Source: an uncultured delta proteobacterium (lineage in GTDB: Bacteria; Myxococcota_A; Polyangia; Haliangiales; Haliangiaceae). Taken from it: 64,000 nucleotides of DNA. This document shows, piece by piece, positions 53,778 through 64,000 of the stretch. The notes under the pieces are model-generated. The model worked only from the letters and a program-made list of their open reading frames with translations. It made no database searches and had not been told where the DNA came from. The number at the start of each line of letters is the position of its first letter. Within the stretch, counting starts at the first letter, position 1. The position numbers and the translations under genes were made by a program. The stretch covers positions 4,512,001 to 4,576,000 of the forward strand of contig CAWKDB010000010.1 in NCBI GenBank assembly GCA_963848295.1, read 5' to 3'.

Positions 53778-54572
53778 ATGCGCCCGTACCTCGATCTGTT
53801 GCGCCACGTGCTCGAGCACGGCGAGCAGCGCACCGATCGCACCGGCACCGGGACGATCTCGGTGTTCGGGGTGCAGACTCGCTACGATCTGCGCGCGGGC
53901 TTTCCGATCGTGACGACGAAGAAGGTGCTGTTTCCCGCGGTCGTGCACGAGCTGCTGTGGTTCCTGCGCGGCTCGACGAACATCAACGACGAGCTGACGC
54001 AGCACACGCCGATCTGGGACGCGTGGGCCGACGCCGAAGGCAACCTCGGGCCGATCTACGGTCATCAATGGCGGCATTGGGGCGTCGCACCGGGCGAGCC
54101 CGGCGGCGTCGATCAGATCCAGCAGGTGCTCGACACGCTCAAGCGCGATCCATCCTCGCGCCGGATCATCGTGTCGGCCTGGAACGTCGCCGACCTCCCG
54201 AAGATGAAGCTGCCGCCGTGCCACGCGCTGTTTCAGTTCTACGTCGCCGGTGGTGCTCTGGATTGTCAGCTCTACCAGCGTTCGGCCGACCTCGCGCTCG
54301 GCGTGCCGTTCAACATCGCGAGCTACGCGTTGCTGATGGCGATGATCGCGAACGAGTGCAAGCTCGAGCCGCGCTACTTCGTGCACACCCTCGGCGACGC
54401 GCACATCTACGCGAACCACGTCGAAGGCGTGAAGATCCAGCTCGCGCGCGAGCCGCGGCCGCTGCCGAAGCTCGTGCTCGCCGACAAGCCGGTGCTCGCG
54501 ATGACGTACGACAACATCGCGCTCGAGGGCTACCAGCACGACGCGTTCATCAAGTTTCCGGTCGCGGTCTGA
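53778..54572 (+). CDS. thyA: Thymidylate synthase
   Basis: DRTGTGT, ELLWFL, LPPCH, YQRSAD, PFNIASY. Confidence 0.97.
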
Positions 54573-54573
54573 G

Positions 54574-55095
54574 TCAGCGCTTCGCGTAGCGCGCGATCTC
54601 GTAGCGGATGCCGTTGTCTTCGCCTTCGCACGCGCCGTCCCAGTTCACGATCGCGAAGCCGAGCGCCTTGATGTTCGGGATCTCGACGTCGCAGCCGAAC
54701 CGGCCGTGCACCCGGGTCAGGTAGACCCAGCGCAGCGCCTCGTGGCCGAACGCCTCGCGGAACAAGACGGCGCCGCCGACGACAAACGCGGTCTCGGCGT
54801 CGCGGGCCAGGTCGAGCGCCATGTCGAGCGAGCCCGCGGCGAGCACGCTCGGCGGCAGCTCGATCGTCCCACGCGTGACGACGATGTTCGTGCGCTTGGG
54901 TAGCGGCCGGCCGCGAACCTCGGCCGATTCCCAGGTCTTGCGTCCCATCACGATCGCGTTATGGCGCCCGGGCGACGCGGCGCTCGTCAGCTTACGGAAG
55001 TGGGCGAGGTCACCGGCCAGCTTGGGCCATGGCAGGGCATTCGATTTCCCGATCCCCCAGTCGAGGTCGGCCGCGACAACGACATCGAAGCTCAC
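54574..55095 (-). CDS. folA: Dihydrofolate reductase
   Basis: IGKSNALPW, DLAHFRKLT, MGRKTWES, PLPKRTNIVV, VVGG. Confidence 0.95.
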   Translation of the reverse strand: MSFDVVVAADLDWGIGKSNALPWPKLAGDLAHFRKLTSAASPGRHNAIVMGRKTWESAEVRGRPLPKRTNIVVTRGTIELPPSVLAAGSLDMALDLARDAETAFVVGGAVLFREAFGHEALRWVYLTRVHGRFGCDVEIPNIKALGFAIVNWDGACEGEDNGIRYEIARYAKR

Positions 55096-55165
55096 GTGGG
55101 CACGGTACCGCAGGCGCGTACATCGCACACCGGTTCGAACCGCGCGATAATGGTTCGGGGGACTC

Positions 55166-56320
55166 ATGCGCTCGCACCTCGGTCTCGCGCTCGGGATCTT
55201 CGCGGCTTGCTCACCGCATCATGGCGACGGGCCCGATGCCGGCGGCAACTCGTGCATTGGTACGGAGACGCAATGCAACGGCCTGGACTTCCAGACCTGT
55301 AACGACGGCACCTTCGAGACGACGCAGACGTGCAGCGGCGCGTGCTTGGCGGCGCTCGGCGGATGTGTCGCTTGCGATCCGAGCGCGGGCAACACGTGCA
55401 ACGCGAACACCGCGGTGACGTGCAACGCCGACGGCTCGTTCGGGTCGACGATCATGACGTGCGGCGAGGGCACCGCGTGCTCCGGCGGCACGTGCAACGA
55501 CGCGTGCACCGCCGATGGCGTCGACCTGGTCTACGTCGTCGACGAGTCGAACGACTTCTTGAGCTTCGATCCGCGCAAGCTCCCGGGCGATCCATTCACG
55601 ATGATCGGCGTGCTGGATTGCCCGCACAACGACACGTCGATCGAGGTGCCGGCGCAAGGCGTCATCCCGTTCTCGATGTCGATCGATCGCAACGGCAAGG
55701 CGTGGGTGCTGTACGCGAGCGGCGAGCTATTCAACGTGTCGCTCACCGACGCGTCGTGCACCGCGGTCGACAACGTGATCGGCGCCGCCGGCATGGAGCT
55801 GTTCGGCATGGGGTTCTCGACGGATTCGGTCGGCGGTAACACCGAGCACCTGTTCATCGCCGGCGGTGGCCAATCGGCGCAGCCGATGGGCAAGCTCGCC
55901 GACATCGATACGACGCTCGCGGACCTCACGCCGACCGTGCTCGGGACGTTGACCGCACCCTCGGACTACAGCCCGGAGCTCACCGGCACGAGCGAGGCGA
56001 AGCTGTTCGGGTTCTATCCCGTGCTCACGACCGGGCCGGCGTACGTCCAAGAGATCGACAAGACCAGCGGCGCCCCCGTCGGCCAGGTGTGGAACCTCGG
56101 GACGAGCGGCCTCGGCGATCAGATCACCGATTGGGCGTTCGCCCAGTGGGGCGGCGTGTTCTACGTATTCGTCACGACCGCCGACGCCGCCAGCACCCGG
56201 ACCTCGACCGTCCGAGCGATCGATCGCGCGACCAACACCTACAGCGTCGTGCTGCCGAACGTCCAGTACTTCATCGATGGCGCCGGCGTCTCGACCTGCG
56301 CGCCGATCACGATCCAATGA
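55166..56320 (+). CDS. Cys-rich lipoprotein with probable beta-propeller C-terminus
   Basis: FAAC lipobox; PFSMSIDR, GMGFS, ELTGT, WAFAQWGG, GAGVSTCAP. Confidence 0.8.
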   Translation: MRSHLGLALGIFAACSPHHGDGPDAGGNSCIGTETQCNGLDFQTCNDGTFETTQTCSGACLAALGGCVACDPSAGNTCNANTAVTCNADGSFGSTIMTCGEGTACSGGTCNDACTADGVDLVYVVDESNDFLSFDPRKLPGDPFTMIGVLDCPHNDTSIEVPAQGVIPFSMSIDRNGKAWVLYASGELFNVSLTDASCTAVDNVIGAAGMELFGMGFSTDSVGGNTEHLFIAGGGQSAQPMGKLADIDTTLADLTPTVLGTLTAPSDYSPELTGTSEAKLFGFYPVLTTGPAYVQEIDKTSGAPVGQVWNLGTSGLGDQITDWAFAQWGGVFYVFVTTADAASTRTSTVRAIDRATNTYSVVLPNVQYFIDGAGVSTCAPITIQ

Positions 56321-56323
56321 CCC

Positions 56324-56414
56324 GGGGACGCTGTCTCTATTGTCAACCAGTGCCCCAGGCCCAACTGCGCGAAATACCAGCGCTCTGATTGGGGACGCTG
56401 TCTCTATTGTCAAC
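56324..56414. repeat. Two identical 24-bp direct repeats separated by 43 bp
   Basis: GGGGACGCTGTCTCTATTGTCAAC at 56324-56347 and 56391-56414. Confidence 0.9.
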
Positions 56415-56466
56415 TAACGGCCTTGGACCCAGCCGCCCGGGTCCCCGAAGTCGAGGTCACGCGTCG

Positions 56467-57864
56467 CTAATTGAGCAGCGCTTCGGTTTCGCCGGTGTCG
56501 GTCGTCTTCTTCGGCGCACTCTGGTCGGCGAGCCGCTGCTTGTTCTGTTCCATCACGAACTGCATGACGTAGGGGAAGCCGACCTGGATGCCGTTGAGCT
56601 TCGGCGCCAGCATCGCCTGCAGACCGAACATGATGACGCTCGCGCGCTCGACGTAGAACCAGCCTTCGGGGTACGCGATCGACTTCATCAAGCCGCGTAG
56701 CTCTTCGCGCTTCATGTCCGGATCGGCGAGCTGTTGCGCGACCGCGGGATCGATCTTGCCGAAGTCGGTGATGTTGAGGTTGAGCAGCTTCTCGAAGTAC
56801 TTGCGCACGGTCTTCTCGAGCAGCTCGCGATCGCCGCCCGGCGCCATGAAGCCCATCTCGTCGATGCCCTTGACGACGAGATCATCCTTGCGTGTCATCA
56901 GGCCGCTCAGGATGTCGAACATGCCGTCGGCGAGGTTCTGGCGCAGCTCGGTCGCCGAGCCGAGATCGAGCACGACGATCCGGACCTGACCTTCGGGCCC
57001 CTTTTGCACGAAGAAGTTTCCGGGATGTGGATCGGCGTGGAAGAACCGGTCGATGAACAGCTGCTTGTAGAACACCTTGGTCAGCTTGGTCGCGACGTCG
57101 TATGGATCCAGCTGGAGCGTCGCGAGCGCGTCCTTCTTCGAGATCTTGACGCCATCCATGAACGACATCGTCAACACCGTGCGGCTCGACCACTCGGGGT
57201 AGACTTTCGGGAACAGCACGTCGGGATCGCTCTCGAAGTTCTTCGCCATTCGCGCGATCATGCGCGCCTCGTTCTCGAGATCGGTTTCGCGCTCGAGCAT
57301 GTCGGCGAGCTGCTCGTGGACGCGCATGATCTGCTGCATCGGCACGAAGTGGCGATAGACGCGCAACGCCCAGCCGAGCACGCGCAGGTCGACCTTGATG
57401 ATCGTCGCGACGTTCGGATAGAGGATCTTGACCGCGAGCCGCTCGCCCGCTTCGTTGCGCGCCTCGTGGACCTGGCCGAGCGACGCCGCCGCGATCGGTT
57501 CGTGCTCGAACGACGCGAACACCTCGGTCGGCAGCCGGCCGAACGCTTTGACAAACGTCGACACGATCGACTTGTAGGTCGCGGGCGGAACGTCGTCTTG
57601 CAGCGCCTCGAGCTCTTCGACGTACTCCCGCGGCAGGAACGTGCCCATGATCGACAAGATCTGGCCGAGCTTGATGTAGACGCCGCGCAACGACACGAAG
57701 CCTCGGAACATCCGGCGCGCGTTGCGGCGATGGATCTTTTTCCACCGCGCTTTGGTCGCGTAGCGCGTCGGCCATAGCTGGGTCCACGCCACCTGCCACA
57801 TGTAACTCAGGAAGATGACCGCGAAGACTCGCGTCGCGCGGATCAGTCGAATGGCGGCGGACAT
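56467..57864 (-). CDS. AarF/ABC1/UbiB family kinase
   Basis: YIKLGQ, LQD, AAASLGQVH, AVK, FFHADPHPGN. Confidence 0.93.
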   Translation of the reverse strand: MSAAIRLIRATRVFAVIFLSYMWQVAWTQLWPTRYATKARWKKIHRRNARRMFRGFVSLRGVYIKLGQILSIMGTFLPREYVEELEALQDDVPPATYKSIVSTFVKAFGRLPTEVFASFEHEPIAAASLGQVHEARNEAGERLAVKILYPNVATIIKVDLRVLGWALRVYRHFVPMQQIMRVHEQLADMLERETDLENEARMIARMAKNFESDPDVLFPKVYPEWSSRTVLTMSFMDGVKISKKDALATLQLDPYDVATKLTKVFYKQLFIDRFFHADPHPGNFFVQKGPEGQVRIVVLDLGSATELRQNLADGMFDILSGLMTRKDDLVVKGIDEMGFMAPGGDRELLEKTVRKYFEKLLNLNITDFGKIDPAVAQQLADPDMKREELRGLMKSIAYPEGWFYVERASVIMFGLQAMLAPKLNGIQVGFPYVMQFVMEQNKQRLADQSAPKKTTDTGETEALLN

Positions 57865-57905
57865 AGGCTAGCTGCGGACGTTGTCCTCGATGCTAGCATG
57901 TGCCC

Positions 57906-58814
57906 GTGACCGACCTGTTCGATCGTGCGGCGAGCTACTTCCACCAGCTGCAGACCGACATCTGCGCTGCACTCGCAGATGCCGACGGCGCGGCGTTGTT
58001 CGGCGCCGATGCGTGGCAGCGCCCGGGCGGCGGCGGCGGGGTCGCCCGCGTGCTCGAAAACGGCGTGGTGTTCGAGAAGGCGGGAGTCAACTGGTCGAGC
58101 GTCGACGGCGAACTACCGGTCGAGCTCGCCGAGCAGATGCCGGGTGAGGGACGCGCGTTCCGGGCGAGCGGGGTGTCGCTGGTCATCCACCCGAAGTCGC
58201 CGATGGTGCCGACCACCCACGCGAACTTTCGCTGCATCGAGAAGGGCGGCACGGTGTGGTTCGGCGGCGGGGCCGACCTGACGCCGTATTACCTGTTCCG
58301 CGAGGACGCGGTCCATTTCCACCGGACGCTCGCCGACGCCTGCGACCGCCATCGCCCGATCGGCGACTACGAGCGGTTCAAGAAGTGGTGCGATGACTAC
58401 TTTTTCCTGCCGCACCGCAACGAGACGCGCGGAGTCGGCGGGGTGTTCTTCGATTACCTCGGCAGCAAACACGAGTTCCCGGCCGAGAAGGTGTTCGACT
58501 TCGTGCGCGAGCTCGGCGATGCGTGGACGACCGCGTACGCGCCGATCGTGGCGCGCCGCAAGCCCGCGACGTGGGGTGACGTCGAGCGCGGCTGGCAGCT
58601 GCGGCGGCGCGGTCGCTACGTCGAGTTTAATTTATTGTACGACCGCGGCACGCTATTCGGGCTCAAGACCAACGGTCGGATCGAGTCGATCTTCATGTCG
58701 CTGCCGCCGATCGTCCGTTGGGACTACGACGCGGGGCCGCAACCGGGCTCGCCCGAAGCCGAGCTGGTCGCGCATCTCAAGGCCATCGACTGGCTCGGGC
58801 GCGCTGCGACATGA
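57906..58814 (+). CDS. hemF: Oxygen-dependent coproporphyrinogen III oxidase
   Basis: FEKAGVN, PTTHANFR, WFGGGADLTP, RRGRYVEFNLLYDRGTLFGL. Confidence 0.96.
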   Translation: MTDLFDRAASYFHQLQTDICAALADADGAALFGADAWQRPGGGGGVARVLENGVVFEKAGVNWSSVDGELPVELAEQMPGEGRAFRASGVSLVIHPKSPMVPTTHANFRCIEKGGTVWFGGGADLTPYYLFREDAVHFHRTLADACDRHRPIGDYERFKKWCDDYFFLPHRNETRGVGGVFFDYLGSKHEFPAEKVFDFVRELGDAWTTAYAPIVARRKPATWGDVERGWQLRRRGRYVEFNLLYDRGTLFGLKTNGRIESIFMSLPPIVRWDYDAGPQPGSPEAELVAHLKAIDWLGRAAT

Positions 58815-58848
58815 ACTGTCGTCGCGCAGGTCGTCAACCTGAGCGGGG

Positions 58849-59227
58849 CTAGAACGTGAAGATCTGCTCGGGACGCTTCTCCGCCGGTTTCGGAGCGGCC
58901 TGCTCCTCGGACTCGGTCCGGCGCTTGATCATCGGCGGCGGCGGCTCGACCGCATAGCGCGCGGCGGCCGAAGTCATCGGCACGATCGGCGCGGGAGTCG
59001 GACGCGACTCTTGCTGGGTCGGTTTCCGGCTTCAGCGGCATCGACGGCGTTGGTCGCGGAGCCGGTGGCGGAGCGATCGTCGTCGCAGCGCCTTCGCCAA
59101 GGAAGTCACCGACGCGGGTCTCGACGAACTGGCTCATCGAGATGTTGTTCGCTTCGCAGAAGGCCTTTAGCCGCTCGTAGGTCGTCCGGCTGACACTGAT
59201 GCTCCGTCGAGTCTGCTTCTTGGCCAT
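58849..59227 (-). CDS. Ribbon-helix-helix-like DNA-binding protein with Pro-rich tail; frameshift near 59000
   Basis: RRSISVSRTTYERLKAFCEANNISMSQFVE (beta-helix-helix); shifted frame ends ...EKRPEQIFTF*; TTGACG-N17-TAAGGA upstream. Confidence 0.65.
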
Positions 59228-59430
59228 AATAAAATCCTTACGCTACGGGTAGGGCATCGTCAAGGCGTACCTACTAGCCTTGGACTCCCGTTTGACGCGA
59301 GCGAACCTACCCCCGGCCTCTGACAACGAAGGGATCGGATCTGCTGATGAATCGGGTGATCCGCGAGTGATCTCGAACGGATCAGCGCCGATCGAATTTT
59401 GATCGCGCCGCACTTCTCGAACCCAGCCCC

Positions 59431-59470
59431 GAAAAATAGAACGGGTCCGACGACGATCGTCGGACCCGTT
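59431..59470 (-). terminator. Intrinsic terminator
   Basis: 14-bp stem 59440-59453/59457-59470 followed on the minus strand by CTATTTTT. Confidence 0.8.
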
Positions 59471-59743
59471 TGCTCATCTTACTCGGACTGCGGTTCGCTG
59501 CCCGAGGTCAGGGAGGCGTTAGGACCAGACCTCCGGCGAGCAATGACTCAATCGTCTCATAGTGTCTTGTCCTCCCCTGGCATTAGCCAGCAGCCCGATG
59601 GCGCGGCCCGCCAGCAACATTGCAGCGGTTCCCGGCATCGGGCCTTCATAATGGGCACTACGGCCCGTCACGAAGCCCACAGCTCGCGGTGTCCTAATGG
59701 TCACTGCGTGTGTTCTCGACGACCAGCTCCGGTCGCACCTCCC
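59431..59743 (-). ncRNA. Unassigned structured ncRNA (~310 nt)
   Basis: Nested long-range helices plus several hairpins; G-U wobbles favour the minus strand; TACAAT just upstream; ends in a terminator. Confidence 0.6.
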
Positions 59744-59813
59744 ATTGTAGAGCAAGCCGAGGCCAAGCGCCAGAGTCCGGAGTAACGCCGCCGCTGTGCT
59801 ATCTAGCGCAGGC

Positions 59814-60167
59814 ATGACGACCCGGCCGAGCAAGCAGCTCGAGACGTTCCCGAACCCCAAGCGCGGCCGCGACTATCACATCGCGTTCGAATGCCCGGAG
59901 TTCACCTGCTTGTGCCCGATCACCGGCCAGCCGGACTTTGCCACCGTCCACATCGACTATGTCGCGGACGAGCTGTGCGTCGAGCTCAAGAGCTTGAAGC
60001 TCTACCTGTGGAGCTATCGCAACGAAGGCACGTTTCACGAAGCGGTCACGAATCAGATCTGTGATGACATCGTCGCGGCAACCCAGCCGCGCTCGATCAC
60101 GGTGACGGCGACGTTCTTGGTTCGCGGCGGCATCACCACCACGGTGACGGTCACCGCGGGAAAGTAG
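59814..60167 (+). CDS. queF: NADPH-dependent 7-cyano-7-deazaguanine reductase (short type)
   Basis: [34 protein letters not shown]. Confidence 0.95.
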
Positions 60168-60171
60168 ATCG

Positions 60172-60579
60172 ATGTTGAACCGCTTGCTGCTGTTAGCTGC
60201 CGTCGCCGGGTGCGGCGGCGCGTCTTATCAGACGATCAAGATCGTCAACCAGACCGATCGCGACATCCCCGAGATCTACGTCTACAAGATGGGCGCGAAG
60301 GATCACGGCAAGTCAGTCGGCTCGCTGCAGCCGGGAGCTGCGTCGCAGGTCAAGGTGCAAGCCGGCAACGTCGAGGTGCTGGCGTACAGCGCGAAGATGC
60401 AGATCGACGATCACACCCGCGATCGGCCGGAGGCATCGCAGGATGTCGAGCTCGATCGGCCGATCGAGCTGATCTTCTTCGACAGCGGGTCACCGCCGGC
60501 AGCCGCCGCCGGCAACCCGAACGTGATCGGCGTGGAGTTCCGCGTGCCGGTCGGCAAGCCGTCGCCGCCGCCGGAGTGA
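60172..60579 (+). CDS. Lipoprotein
   Basis: VAGC lipobox; IVNQTDRDIPEIYV. Confidence 0.7.
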   Translation: MLNRLLLLAAVAGCGGASYQTIKIVNQTDRDIPEIYVYKMGAKDHGKSVGSLQPGAASQVKVQAGNVEVLAYSAKMQIDDHTRDRPEASQDVELDRPIELIFFDSGSPPAAAAGNPNVIGVEFRVPVGKPSPPPE

Positions 60580-60586
60580 GCGACGA

Positions 60587-61676
60587 CTAAGGCGCGAAGT
60601 GCTCGGTCGACGTCCGGCGCGCCTCGTACGCGGCGGCCTCGGCCTGCGTGAAGGCGGCGTGGCTGCCACATCGTGTTGCTGCCCTCGTGGCCGAGGCGGA
60701 GGTCGCCGGGGTGCGGCTCGGCGATCAACCAGCCAGCCATGTAGCGGTGCTTGTCACCGGTCGGCGCGGTGTGGAGGTGCGCCATCGTCGCGGCGGACAC
60801 GAGCGGCGTGCTCGGCGCCGCGTGAATCGCGAGGAACTTTCCCCAATCGCCGAGGCTGCAGTGCACCGTGCCGGCGGGGCCGAAGCTCGGGGGATTGTCC
60901 GCGTGCGGATCGTTCGGCGCGACCGGGCGTTGATCGCGGTGGCCCCACGGTTCATCGATCTTCGTCGCGTCGCCGGGCGGGCCAAAACCACACGACGTCA
61001 TGTGCAGAGGTGCGAACAGCTCGTCGCGCATCAGCTGCTCCCAGGTCTTGCCGGTCGCGCGCTCGAGTGCCGCGCCGGCGATCACGTAGCCGGCGTTCGA
61101 ATAGACGAACGTGCCCGGGGCTTGTGCGGGCGGGTGAGCGAGCACGGCGGCCACCAGCTTGCTGCGCGCCTCGGGCGCGACACCGTCAGCGAACGCCTGC
61201 CGCGTGATGTCGCTCGGGAGCTCTGCCGGAGCCCCGGCTCGATGCTGGAGCAATTGATCGAGCGTGACCGCAGCGTATCCGGGATCGACCGTGACGCCGG
61301 CGAACAGCTTGTCGAGCCGATCGTCCCAGTGCAACACGCCGCGATCGACATAGATGCCGATCAGCGTCGCGGTCATTGCCTTGGTGTCCGAACCGAGGTG
61401 CCATTGATCGTCGATCGTGGCGGGGTGGCTCGGATCGCCCGCCTTGCGCGAGCCGGTAACCGCGCTCGCGACCAGCTTGCCGCCGCGCCACACTGCCATC
61501 CCGAGCGCGGGCAGATGCTCCGCCATGCGCACCGCCTCGAGCTGCGTCTTGAGATCTGGCGTCACCGCTGGCTCGCTCTTGCCCGGCTCCGCGTCGTGAC
61601 CGCGGCACGCGACCAGCGCGCTGCCCGAAGCGACGAGCGAAACCATGACCGATGCGACGAAAGATCGATGGGTCAT
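60587..61676 (-). CDS. Serine hydrolase (beta-lactamase/AmpC family) lipoprotein with disrupted C-terminus
   Basis: GSDTK (SxxK), LLQHRAG, YSN, PAG, HEGSNT; homology appears to end after about 60667. Confidence 0.75.
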
Positions 61677-62914
61677 GATCGTCTTTCCAACAACAACTGG
61701 TGATCGCCTAGCGTGCGCTCGGTGAACGCGGCCTCGCTGAACGCGAGGTACAGCAGCCACGTGCGGATGAACGGCTCGTCGAAGCCGAGTGCGCGCACCG
61801 CGGGGAGCTCGGCGACGAAACGATCGCGCCACGCGCGCAGCGTCGGCGCGTAGTCCGGGCCGATGTCATCGCTGCGGGTCAGTGTGAACGGCGCGGCGGC
61901 GGCGCGGATCGCGGCGAGCGACGGGATGCACGCGCCCGGGAAGATGTACGTCTGCATCCAATCGACGTTCTTGCGATACGTCTCGAACCGATCATCGGGC
62001 ATCGTGATCGTTTGCAGCGCGAGCCGGCCGCCCTCCGCGCGAGGGCCGAGGGCGCGCGCGCACACCGCGAAGAACTCGGGCAGGAAATCGAACCCCACCG
62101 CTTCGAGCATCTCGATCGACACGATCTTGTCGAACGTGCCGGTCAGGTCGCGGTAGTCGCGATACTCGACCGCGATGCGATCGCCGAGCCCGGCTGCGGC
62201 CACCCGCGCTGCCGCGAGCTCGCGTTGCTCGCGCGACACCGTGATCGCCGTGACCCGACAACCGCGCGTCCGCGCCGCGTGGATCGCCATGCCACCCCAG
62301 CCGCAGCCGAGCTCGAGCAGGTGATCGCGCGGGGACAGCGCGAGCAGATCGCACAGCCGATCGAGCTTGCGGCGCTGGGCATCCGCGAGCGAATCGCCGT
62401 CCCGATAGATCGCGCACGAATACGCGAAGGTCTCGGGATCGAGGAACAGTCGATAGAACGCATTTCCCAGGTCGTAGTGAGCATGGACGTTGCGCTCGCT
62501 GCCGGTCCGGCTATTAGCAGCGTGACGATACCGGACAAGCGCCGGCCACCGCGCGAGCCGGGTGAGCGGCGACTCGACCCCGCGCGCAGCGGTGGCGCGC
62601 AAGAACGCGCGGACCACGCCGACCACATCGTCGCTCGACCACTCGCCGGCGACGAACGATTCGCCGGCGCCCATCTCGCCGCGCAGCAGCAGGCGCAGGA
62701 ACAGCCGGTCGTCGTGAATGCGGGCGCGGGCGTCCGGCGCCCCTTGTCCGCCGAGCCGCACCGTCTGGCCGGACGGCAACGCGAGATCGAGCCGCCCACC
62801 TGCCCAGGACGATCGCAACTGGCGCAGCGCGAGCCAGCGCAGCGCATCCGCCGCGGGCGGCACGAGCGGTGGCAGCGGCAAGATCAGCGGGTGTGCAACG
62901 TCGGCGACCGACAA
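61673..62914 (-). CDS. Cyclopropane-fatty-acyl-phospholipid synthase family SAM methyltransferase
   Basis: GAGESF, HYDLGNAFY, YSCA, ELGCGWGG, FDKIVSIEMLEAVG, YIFPG; TTG start 6 nt after TACGTT. Confidence 0.92.
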   Translation of the reverse strand: MSVADVAHPLILPLPPLVPPAADALRWLALRQLRSSWAGGRLDLALPSGQTVRLGGQGAPDARARIHDDRLFLRLLLRGEMGAGESFVAGEWSSDDVVGVVRAFLRATAARGVESPLTRLARWPALVRYRHAANSRTGSERNVHAHYDLGNAFYRLFLDPETFAYSCAIYRDGDSLADAQRRKLDRLCDLLALSPRDHLLELGCGWGGMAIHAARTRGCRVTAITVSREQRELAAARVAAAGLGDRIAVEYRDYRDLTGTFDKIVSIEMLEAVGFDFLPEFFAVCARALGPRAEGGRLALQTITMPDDRFETYRKNVDWMQTYIFPGACIPSLAAIRAAAAPFTLTRSDDIGPDYAPTLRAWRDRFVAELPAVRALGFDEPFIRTWLLYLAFSEAAFTERTLGDHQLLLERRS

Positions 62915-63049
62915 CGGCCCAACGTAACTTACAACCGATCTCAAACATAGATCCGCGGCATACAGGCACGGCGGGATCGAGACCGCGACGCCGTCACCCG
63001 CACTCGGCCACACGTCTAGAACGATCGCCGATCGAGCCAGGCTCGGGAT

Positions 63050-63844
63050 CTACTGGCGCTTCGGTTGTGCGAGCAACGGCCGATGATCGATACCCGGCCG
63101 GCGATAGGGGACGCCGAGCCAGCGCAGCTTGATCGCCTGCCAGTGGATGAGACCGATCACTCGCGCCGTCATGAACGGATATCGCACCGCCGCGGCGACG
63201 AGCGTGCGGTCGGTGAGCGCCCCGCGCGCGCCGGAGAGCCGGGCGGTGAAGCTGCGACCGGCCTCTTGCTCGACGCGCATGTCGATCGCCAACCGCTCGC
63301 CGTCGAGCGGTGCGTCGAACGAGAACTCGTAGCTCGCGTCGCCATGCAGGAACGGCGAGACGAACAGCTCGCGGACATGGCGAAACGTCGCGACCGGGCC
63401 GCGCTCCGCGCGGTCGACGCGTTGCTGCGGTCCGAGCACGTAGCGGAACCGGCCGCCGTAGGTGTTGTTGACCTCGGCGATCACGGTCTCGAGCGCGCCG
63501 GCGCTGTCGTAGTTGAGAAAGAAGCTCACCGGGTTGAACACGTATCCGAACGTCCGCAGATTTGTGACCAGCCGCGTCGTGTGCGGCGCGGGTAAGCCGT
63601 TCGCAGCGCAGATCGCGCGCAGCGAGGCCCGCAGATCGTCGGTCGTGCCGTCGCCGTAGTCGCGTTCGCGAAAGCCGAATGGCGTGCGGCCGGCGCGCGA
63701 GAACAGTCGGAGCGCGCGATCGAGCTCGGGCAATTCGTCGAGATCGAGCGCGGCGACATAGACGTTGTAGCGAAACGCGCGGCGGGCGAGCTCGTCGTGG
63801 CGCGCATGCATCACCTCGCCGCGATAGAGCGCGGAGTGCGTCAT
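63050..63844 (-). CDS. DUF1365 family protein
   Basis: LYRGEVMHAR, FGYVFNPVSF, AEVNNTYG, FVSPF, IHWQA. Confidence 0.9.
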   Translation of the reverse strand: MTHSALYRGEVMHARHDELARRAFRYNVYVAALDLDELPELDRALRLFSRAGRTPFGFRERDYGDGTTDDLRASLRAICAANGLPAPHTTRLVTNLRTFGYVFNPVSFFLNYDSAGALETVIAEVNNTYGGRFRYVLGPQQRVDRAERGPVATFRHVRELFVSPFLHGDASYEFSFDAPLDGERLAIDMRVEQEAGRSFTARLSGARGALTDRTLVAAAVRYPFMTARVIGLIHWQAIKLRWLGVPYRRPGIDHRPLLAQPKRQ

Positions 63845-64000
63845 GCCCGCTCGTCCGCGATCGCGCGAGTCGCGGCGGCGATCCCGCTGCGGATGCCGTC
63901 CTCGTGAAAGCCGAAGCCGAGATGGGCCCCGGCGTAGTACGTGCGCGCCCCGCGCCCCGCGTTCGGCAACAGCGACTGTGCGGCGAGCGCGCCGCCATCG
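63841..64000 (-). CDS. C-terminus of an FAD-dependent oxidoreductase (amine-oxidase-like)
   Basis: Manual translation RTYYAGAHLGFGFHEDGIRSG; ATGA overlap with DUF1365. Confidence 0.85.
   Translation of the reverse strand, partial: DGGALAAQSLLPNAGRGARTYYAGAHLGFGFHEDGIRSGIAAATRAIADERA

Follow-up and report, generated by a model that had tools for sequence, protein, structure and literature searches.

The window, a 64,000-nucleotide stretch of DNA from an uncultured member of the Haliangiaceae, harbours an element on its minus strand that runs from about position 59737 to 59432 (about 300 nt) and is, with very little doubt, a real RNA gene. It is flanked by hemF, by a gene whose N-terminus is weakly RHH-like, and by queF. 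The latter (preQ1 synthase; TIGR03139, E 4.5e-51) is encoded divergently on the plus strand at 59814-60167, outside the RNA, and the RHH-like gene lies on the minus strand at 58724-59227, with a conserved N-terminal domain of about 45 amino acids that gives a weak NCBIfam match (E 0.0094) and no Pfam match. The initial annotation had described the element as a non-coding RNA. This has to be revised, since a short open frame, with a start codon and a strong Shine-Dalgarno (SD) motif ahead of it, is present in every accepted homolog; the element is not a purely non-coding RNA but carries a tiny reading frame. The central feature, in which hairpin P5 is followed by an SD motif at 59577-59571, an AUG and an ORF at 59560-59519, was absent from that annotation.

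The TACAAT previously seen upstream of the element was found at 59749-59744 and represents a putative -10 hexamer (59744-59749, minus strand); TAnnnT, located by regular expression, occupies this position in all 29 homologs. A putative -35 hexamer, TGGCGC (59767-59772, minus strand), stands 17 nt before the -10 box, and TGGCR is found 17 nt before TAnnnT in 25 of the 29. A scan with the sigma-70 consensus called no promoter. The conserved spacing of the two motifs places the putative transcription start near 59737, so that the 5' end assigned initially is probably about 6 nt too long. At the other end, the annotated 14-bp terminator with its U-tract was recovered as an intrinsic terminator-like structure at 59432-59470 (minus strand; hairpin 59470-59440), with compensatory pairs in the RNAalifold counts. 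The minus strand of 59431-59745 folds with a minimum free energy (MFE) of -155.5 kcal/mol and a z-score of -7.0 and thereby beats 100 of 100 shuffles, the comparison that had been proposed as a check; without the terminator the z-score is -4.3. However, the plus strand folds nearly as well (z -6.5), and for the 5' domain alone the z-score is -3.5 on the plus strand versus -1.8 on the minus strand. Folding z-scores are thus uninformative as a strand test, and the element is assigned to the minus strand because of its promoter, terminator, SD motif and ORF.

Among the sequencing runs listed as matching the stretch or a part of it, 18 of 20 are RNA runs, and none of the runs contains half of its words. 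Near-identical contigs (97-100%) are present in four of four metatranscriptomes and, among the pieces listed for 54000-64000, lie within 59477-59725. In three runs they end at 59477-59481, just before the terminator. Variants from several relatives are stacked at 59477-59725, and the flanking-gene pieces listed are short or diverged. These contigs, which carry no information on strand, ends or level and come in three of four runs from 2018 soil, possibly from one campaign, are supportive but not proof. Together with the promoter-like motifs they suggest that the element is transcribed on its own. The initial view of an independently transcribed structured RNA is supported by homologs, covariation and RNA contigs.

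By BLASTN the element was detected in 34 of 36 genomes of the same genus. Model R1, which spans P2 to the AUG, has P5 off by one column and was used only for finding and aligning homologs, matched 124 of 147 genomes of the order and 123 of 137 of the family. A single match was obtained in 123 of the 124 positive genomes, and one genome has two identical copies. (Genomes G010 and G088, marked as unpublished, are included in the BLASTN and R1 counts and G010 forms one alignment row; no claim depends on them.) Since queF was found alongside 38 of 40 distant matches that were fetched, orthology is supported even at weak scores. A wider search with models R2 and R3 and the P5-SD-AUG pattern extended the distribution to at least 15 further families of the class (f3, f4, f8, f10, f11, f17, f18, f21, f22, f24, f29, f30, f32, f69 and f70) and, outside the class, to f58 (four full-length matches among 28 genomes) and f85. 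R3 matched 36 of 151 genomes drawn evenly from the class. With the best 18 candidates per genome, R3 did not find the RNA in families f5 (18 genomes), f12 (17), f13 (10), f14 (17) and f16 (11), which is to be read as not found rather than absent. Named hosts among the 80 of 120 loci listed are Sorangium cellulosum So ceGT47, six more Sorangium strains, Byssovorax cruenta, Chondromyces apiculatus DSM 436, Polyangium fumosum DSM 14668 and many Polyangiaceae MAGs, a distribution that suggests the class Polyangia as the origin of the window. A pattern match in Nannocystis pusilla has a 5-codon frame and no model match. BLAST searches of 72,556 plasmids and 50,697 phages yielded no match, and of 109 viral pattern matches three had an 11-19-codon ORF and none resembled the RNA, as judged by pattern and eye only. 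Weak matches were dropped on inspection (L135-L138, L143-L147, L166-L183, L186, L189-L191, L193 and L478), L184 (41-codon frame) and L201 (cut by a contig end) were left out of the counts, and L476, L479, L489 and L490 lie outside the inspected set.

Since 82 of the 84 loci examined in the order have queF next to the RNA, the element could be viewed as a cis leader or attenuator of queF or of the RHH gene, for example one sensing preQ1 or queuosine. However, queF is divergent from the RNA in 74 of these loci, downstream and co-oriented in seven, convergent in one and missing in two, and the RHH gene follows on the same strand in only two of the 84. In other orders queF adjacency was not seen. 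No preQ1 family of Rfam matched, and queuosine-read codons account for 12.7% of codons both in the ORFs and in the genome, so that queuosine-codon sensing was rejected as well. The cis-leader explanation is thus largely refuted and retains hardly any probability. At 113 loci, the gene that follows points towards the RNA in 61 cases and in the same direction in 41, with 11 undetermined, and the flanking proteins scanned at distant loci (66 of 108) belong to unrelated families. The RHH protein was also rejected as a partner, as the two distributions differ: all 17 f14 and all 11 f16 genomes, in which no RNA was found, have the protein, and it was found in none of the eight f10 or six f21 genomes that yielded the RNA. 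The RHH gene is a neighbour but no obligate partner of the RNA. A MiaB-like radical SAM gene (L185:2-1291), selB (L154:396-1904) and the queF of the window each adjoin the RNA in some lineage and are translation-related, but overall there is no common neighbour. Just downstream of the RNA, a phage integrase gene (L163:1886-3166) and a ParE-family gene (L133:1746-2042) were seen in two genomes, which raises the possibility that the RNA gene is used as a site of integration.

All complementary segments of the initial annotation are present in the sequence, and its arms at 59720-35 (P1), 59636-43/59593-600 (P4) and 59577-90 (P5) agree with the homologs. The closed multibranch fold built from them is not supported, and its three long-range helices were rejected. 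Its closing helix (59736-43/59511-18) is paired in 37% of cells, and the nested helices 59691-97/59519-25 and 59682-87/59536-41 in 59% and 62%, respectively, in an alignment of 25 of 29 loci from which four with long insertions were omitted; all three are MFE features of the single sequence. Furthermore, the closing helix has its 5' strand downstream of the -10 box but ahead of the first conserved helix, so that most of this strand is probably not transcribed. For the arm 59668-75/59644-51 a three-pair core persists in at least 24 of 25 homologs, while the arm as a whole is 74% paired, no better than shuffles. Resemblances to SAM-I, the T-box and group II intron domain V, considered as leads, were contradicted by the alignments.

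On the minus strand, the 5' domain starts with hairpin P1 (59720-59736), taken from the MFE fold and with a compensatory pair in the RNAalifold counts. It is followed by hairpin P2 (59671-59718), which is long and irregular, has an apical loop of the AUNN type and shows 75-100% pairing per sub-helix in 28 homologs, by hairpin P3 (59653-59666; 98% paired, two of four pairs changed on both sides in 45 sequences) and by a linker (59644-59652) with a GAA conserved in the alignments before P4. P4 (59593-59643) combines a family-invariant core with a length-variable tip. The core, GGGnnCCGC (59633-25) with GCGGGCC (59611-05), is present in 45 of 45 homologs, and six of six pairs of the base helix show compensatory changes among the 45. 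P5 (59577-59590), the hairpin abutting the SD motif, is 98% paired and occurs across families in the compensated variants CUGGC/GCCAG, CCGGC/GCCGG and CCGCC/GGCGG. Taken together, P3, P4 and P5 are 97% paired in a MAFFT alignment of 45 homologs, with 10 of 22 pairs changed on both sides, and these measures were reached by 0-1 of 500 shuffles, in a test that is biased by the use of a structure model to find the sequences. When changes were counted on a tree for 3,650 column pairs of 97 sequences, seven predicted pairs ranked first, four of the P4 base, two of the P4 tip and one of P5; the 5' part of this alignment was model-fitted and the P-values are rough. The covariation that had been proposed as a check on homologs was thus found as compensatory changes in P4 and P5. 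Neither pseudoknots nor pairing of the 5' domain with the ORF appeared among the top pairs of the 3,650. Downstream of the ORF, P7 (59482-59506, minus strand) is a variable hairpin of the MFE fold that differs in sequence and length and is missing in some homologs. In the window's family P2 displays the AUNN loop together with GAGNAC. In Polyangiaceae, predicted folds replace P2 by a multibranch domain; at L278, L212, L243, L232 and L225 this is a junction that includes a small hairpin capped by a loop of the AUGG/UUGG type and another hairpin with the loop AGCAC.

Directly after P5, the near-invariant SD1 (GGGGAGG, 59571-59577, minus strand) has a predicted duplex energy of -11.4 kcal/mol, which is matched or beaten by the best start of 4% of 1,934 long ORFs. 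For this and the second motif below, the scores use a presumed anti-SD sequence, since no 16S 3' end was found in the assembly. SD1 precedes a 13-codon ORF, MRRLSHCSPEVWS-stop (59519-59560, minus strand), with its AUG at 59560, its stop at 59521-19 and a peptide that is not conserved. Within the family, the ORF has 13 codons in 97 of 100 matches of R1, a model that ends at the AUG, 14 in two and 12 in one. Over 153 distinct homologs, the distant part of which was chosen partly on ORF length, it has 12-19 codons, with differences of whole codons between homologs. These 153 end with UAG (73), UAA (52) or UGA (28); the three positions of the stop codon changed 0, 1 and 14 times on the tree while it remained a stop, and in one homolog the start codon is GUG instead of AUG.

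Such exchanges speak against the explanation that the RNA is structured but untranslated, with SD, AUG and stop as by-products of RNA motifs or as a 30S decoy without elongation. The same holds for the P5-SD-AUG pattern, which is followed by an 11-19-codon ORF in 38 of 41 matches labelled as myxobacteria (including four labelled only as delta proteobacterium) versus 3 of 39 in other taxa. All of these 38 have an R3 E-value of at most 0.001, with the best outsider at 0.0033; among a further 40 loci with the pattern, 23 have a frame of this length. An untranslated RNA would be consistent with SD1 being mostly paired in the predicted ensemble of the full RNA (27% unpaired on average), from which the finished RNA may be poorly translated, but on balance we consider it very improbable. 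The short ORF is very probably translated, judging from its conserved signals.

The peptide itself seems not to be the object of selection. Substitutions in the ORF are spread over the codon positions (138/137/145) with no third-position excess, and its dN/dS is 0.79-0.88; on one tree it is 0.88, whereas queF (62 loci) has 0.15 and the RHH domain (46 loci) 0.12. The conservation of start, stop, frame and length together with a neutral-like dN/dS implies that the translation signals are selected and the peptide is not. A functional micropeptide mRNA under a riboswitch-like or protein-controlled 5' leader would also account for the conservation of all signals of a translated gene, and peptides of Polyangiaceae do resemble each other (M[QH]STxGxxPE); furthermore, a Glu recurs 3-4 codons before the stop. 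However, the GAG codon of this Glu is swapped for GGG in several homologs, as expected of an RNA motif, and the peptides of 62 representatives have no common motif, so that together with the dN/dS values a micropeptide appears improbable. In composition, Ala, Leu, Val, Ile and Phe are depleted 0.3-0.55-fold.

Inside the ORF lies a second SD-like motif, SD2 (GGAGG, 59530-59534, minus strand). The distance from the end of its GGAG to the stop is 9 nt in 73 of the 153 homologs and 12 nt in 40, and the motif is absent in 25; the median of this region is matched or beaten by 3% of 1,051 gene ends. Codons 2-8 contain on average 2.7 rare codons as compared to 0.97 in 244 genes, and relative to the source genome AGU is 39-fold and UGU 18-fold over-represented in the ORFs. 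Codon 3 is AGU or UGU in 58 of 91 homologs, and codon 5 in 62 of 91. These codons contain a GU conserved at ORF positions +8/9 (71/91) and +14/15 (67/91), six bases apart. The first base of the motif swaps between A, U and C while the GU stays; this points to nucleotides rather than to one tRNA. The conserved GU might be recognised by a protein or act as a signal at the codon level. At these positions (59548-59553 and 59546-59548, minus strand) AGU, UGU or CGU codons are found, and the window copy keeps only the second.

Strong SD motifs and slow codons raise the alternative of a ribosome or tRNA sink, or a starvation sentinel, in the manner of a tamed CreT, which would hold ribosomes or deplete particular tRNAs. 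The CreT of CreTA modules requires an SD, a start codon, a pair of consecutive rare codons and a stem-loop, and the RNA rather than the peptide is its active agent (PMC8501985). The strong SD1 and SD2, the AUG, the mini-ORF with its excess of rare codons at codons 2-8 and AGU/UGU at codons 3 and 5, and the downstream stem-loop all agree with this description. In contrast to CreT, two consecutive identical rare codons occur in only 2 of 91 homologs, the 5' domain is large and conserved, and the RNA is single copy across families. Furthermore, no cas family, CRISPR or antitoxin neighbour was found among the 66 flanking proteins scanned, the constancy of the GU argues for nucleotides, and a sink would leave the 170-nt 5' domain unexplained. 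We regard this explanation as unlikely.

After the stop codon, CCUCCC (59511-59516, minus strand) had been assigned to pairing with the 5' end. It instead pairs with the 3' half of the ORF and forms the 3' strand of helix P6. In a cognate-pairing test, the 3' half of the ORF formed better pairing with the post-stop sequence of the same RNA than with those of others in 60 divergent representatives (z -4.7), and the signal is absent among 64 close homologs (z 0.4). A switch in which SD1 pairs with the post-stop strand as its anti-SD is thermodynamically possible, but was rejected as covariation is unsupportive (z -1.1). At L128, L129, L130, L140, L141, L142 and L154 the post-stop strand can pair with either the 3' half of the ORF or a second, downstream copy of the motif; by inspection, this suggests two alternative folds, neither of which extends to the terminator. 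A CCUCCC-type anti-SD strand follows the stop in most members of the family, which would fit an sRNA that base-pairs in trans under the control of translation: the C-rich strand, when freed from SD2, or the single-stranded start of the ORF would pair with the SD regions of target mRNAs. In line with this, a TRIC-seq preprint describes M. xanthus as lacking Hfq and the RNAs Pxr and MXnc1 as pairing near SDs of their targets (10.1101/2025.09.11.675593). However, the strand co-varies with the ORF rather than being fixed, is shifted further downstream in other families, and the bases with the highest conservation lie inside helices. Trans-pairing is therefore also unlikely, if a shade less so than the sink.

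The reading we prefer, tentatively and at somewhat less than even chances, is that of a ribosome-gated switch that reports the translation state of the cell, in which a folded 5' domain is followed by a strong SD and a dummy ORF. The element would be transcribed on its own, as the motifs and RNA contigs suggest. A ribosome would then load at SD1 beside P5 and read 12-19 codons, a step to which conserved start, stop, frame and length point strongly. Elongation would unzip P6, and SD2, judging from its spacing, could pause the ribosome at the stop. Ribosome occupancy might thereby determine how the RNA folds or how long it persists, and the effector might be the conserved 5' domain, most likely by binding a putative protein. 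Single copy number, fixed ORF length, the neutral peptide, the strength of SD2, P6 covariation and the compensated P4 and P5 count for the switch. Against it count the absence of SD2 in 25 of 153 homologs, the null result for P6 in close homologs and an SD1 that is only 27% unpaired; the conserved GU at +8/9 and +14/15 is left unexplained.

None of the known RNAs considered accounts for the element. A cmscan against Rfam 15 gave no match at the gathering score in the window, with only chance-level matches up to E 10, and none at the gathering score at 18 homolog loci. The earlier statement that no tmRNA, RNase P, SRP or preQ1 signature is present was borne out, with tmRNA, RNase P, SRP and 6S each located elsewhere in the genome. 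RF00010 (RNase P), RF00169 (SRP) and RF00013 (6S) each have one match above cut-off elsewhere in G000, and ARAGORN found no tmRNA gene in the window, the genomic tmRNA being on contig C2. ARAGORN also called a second, permuted tmRNA at G000:C2:94345-95068, which Rfam RF00023 does not support and which is probably false. tmRNA has a short internal reading frame with its stop within a hairpin, and the element resembles it (RF00023) as a single-copy, standalone structured RNA of similar size with such a frame, but has no tRNA-like domain such as that of tmRNA with its CCA end, and has an SD and AUG of its own, whereas the resume codon of tmRNA works without either. Membership among preQ1 riboswitches or cis leaders is not indicated, given the Rfam result and the divergent queF in 74 of 84 loci.

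With attenuator leaders, including released sRNAs such as rnTrpL, which is set free from an attenuator leader, the element shares a short ORF, the translation of which would remodel downstream pairing ahead of a terminator. Unlike these, it has no fixed downstream gene, no run of codons for a single amino acid and a 170-nt structured domain before the ORF, and no antiterminator was seen when homolog loci were inspected by eye. The element works most like an attenuator leader or CreT, yet belongs to neither. The dual-function sRNAs SgrS, SR1, RNAIII and Spot 42 are likewise standalone regulatory RNAs with a small ORF, but their peptides have functions of their own, whereas the peptide here is near-neutral and without the purifying selection seen in its neighbours (0.88 versus 0.15 and 0.12). 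Type I toxin mRNAs such as hok, tisB and aapA share the long structured 5' region, the short ORF and a 3' strand that could pair with the SD. In contrast to these, the peptide of the element has 12-19 amino acids, is mostly polar and is not conserved, the gene is single copy and had no BLAST match on plasmids or phages, and no antisense antitoxin was seen on inspection.

As a myxobacterial, lineage-restricted standalone RNA the element is comparable to Pxr, an sRNA of three stem-loops from the Cystobacterineae, where it arose (PMC5684412). It differs from Pxr in being larger, in carrying an ORF and in occurring mainly in the Sorangium/Polyangium class. No description of this RNA was found in the literature accessible to us, while survey supplements and subscription papers could still hold one. 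A term search of the main texts of two genome-wide motif surveys (PMC11109978, PMC8632094) gave no mention of myxobacteria. The TRIC-seq preprint names as candidates in M. xanthus MXnc1 and one near MXAN_RS24205 (10.1101/2025.09.11.675593). In the absence of an Rfam match and of a description in the literature seen, the RNA class is apparently undescribed, as the initial annotation had considered possible.

It is possible, though we hold this with more reserve than the switch itself, that the element represents an old and abundant class of RNA that is neither an mRNA nor a classical ncRNA. A sequence-free dummy ORF between two SD motifs, used to load and retain a ribosome, would make it a standalone sensor of translation acting via its structured domain, possibly as a counterpart of Pxr on the Sorangium/Polyangium side that gates the starvation response. 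Few bacterial RNAs of this size are single copy across many families, and such RNAs (tmRNA, RNase P, SRP and 6S) serve core processes. The design is unusual in that selection acts on the translation of an ORF and not on its product, in a gene that has no fixed downstream target. The RNA may illustrate how translation is linked to regulation in myxobacteria that do not belong to the Pxr-bearing lineage, and its presence in cultured producers of secondary metabolites makes genetic and biochemical study feasible.

Three minor observations concern the flanks. Between the terminator and the RHH gene of the window, an imperfect inverted-repeat, GATC-rich stretch (59340-59410) is not conserved in the homologs. 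The RHH-like domain (the first 45 codons or so) shows 71-98% identity within the family and, despite homologs in 67 of 151 genomes of the class, has no Pfam match; it is a candidate for an unannotated conserved myxobacterial DNA-binding domain. On the plus strand (59790-59813), a GTGCTA-like motif located about 8-14 nt before the queF start is conserved in most homologs and is probably the queF promoter of a short-leader mRNA.
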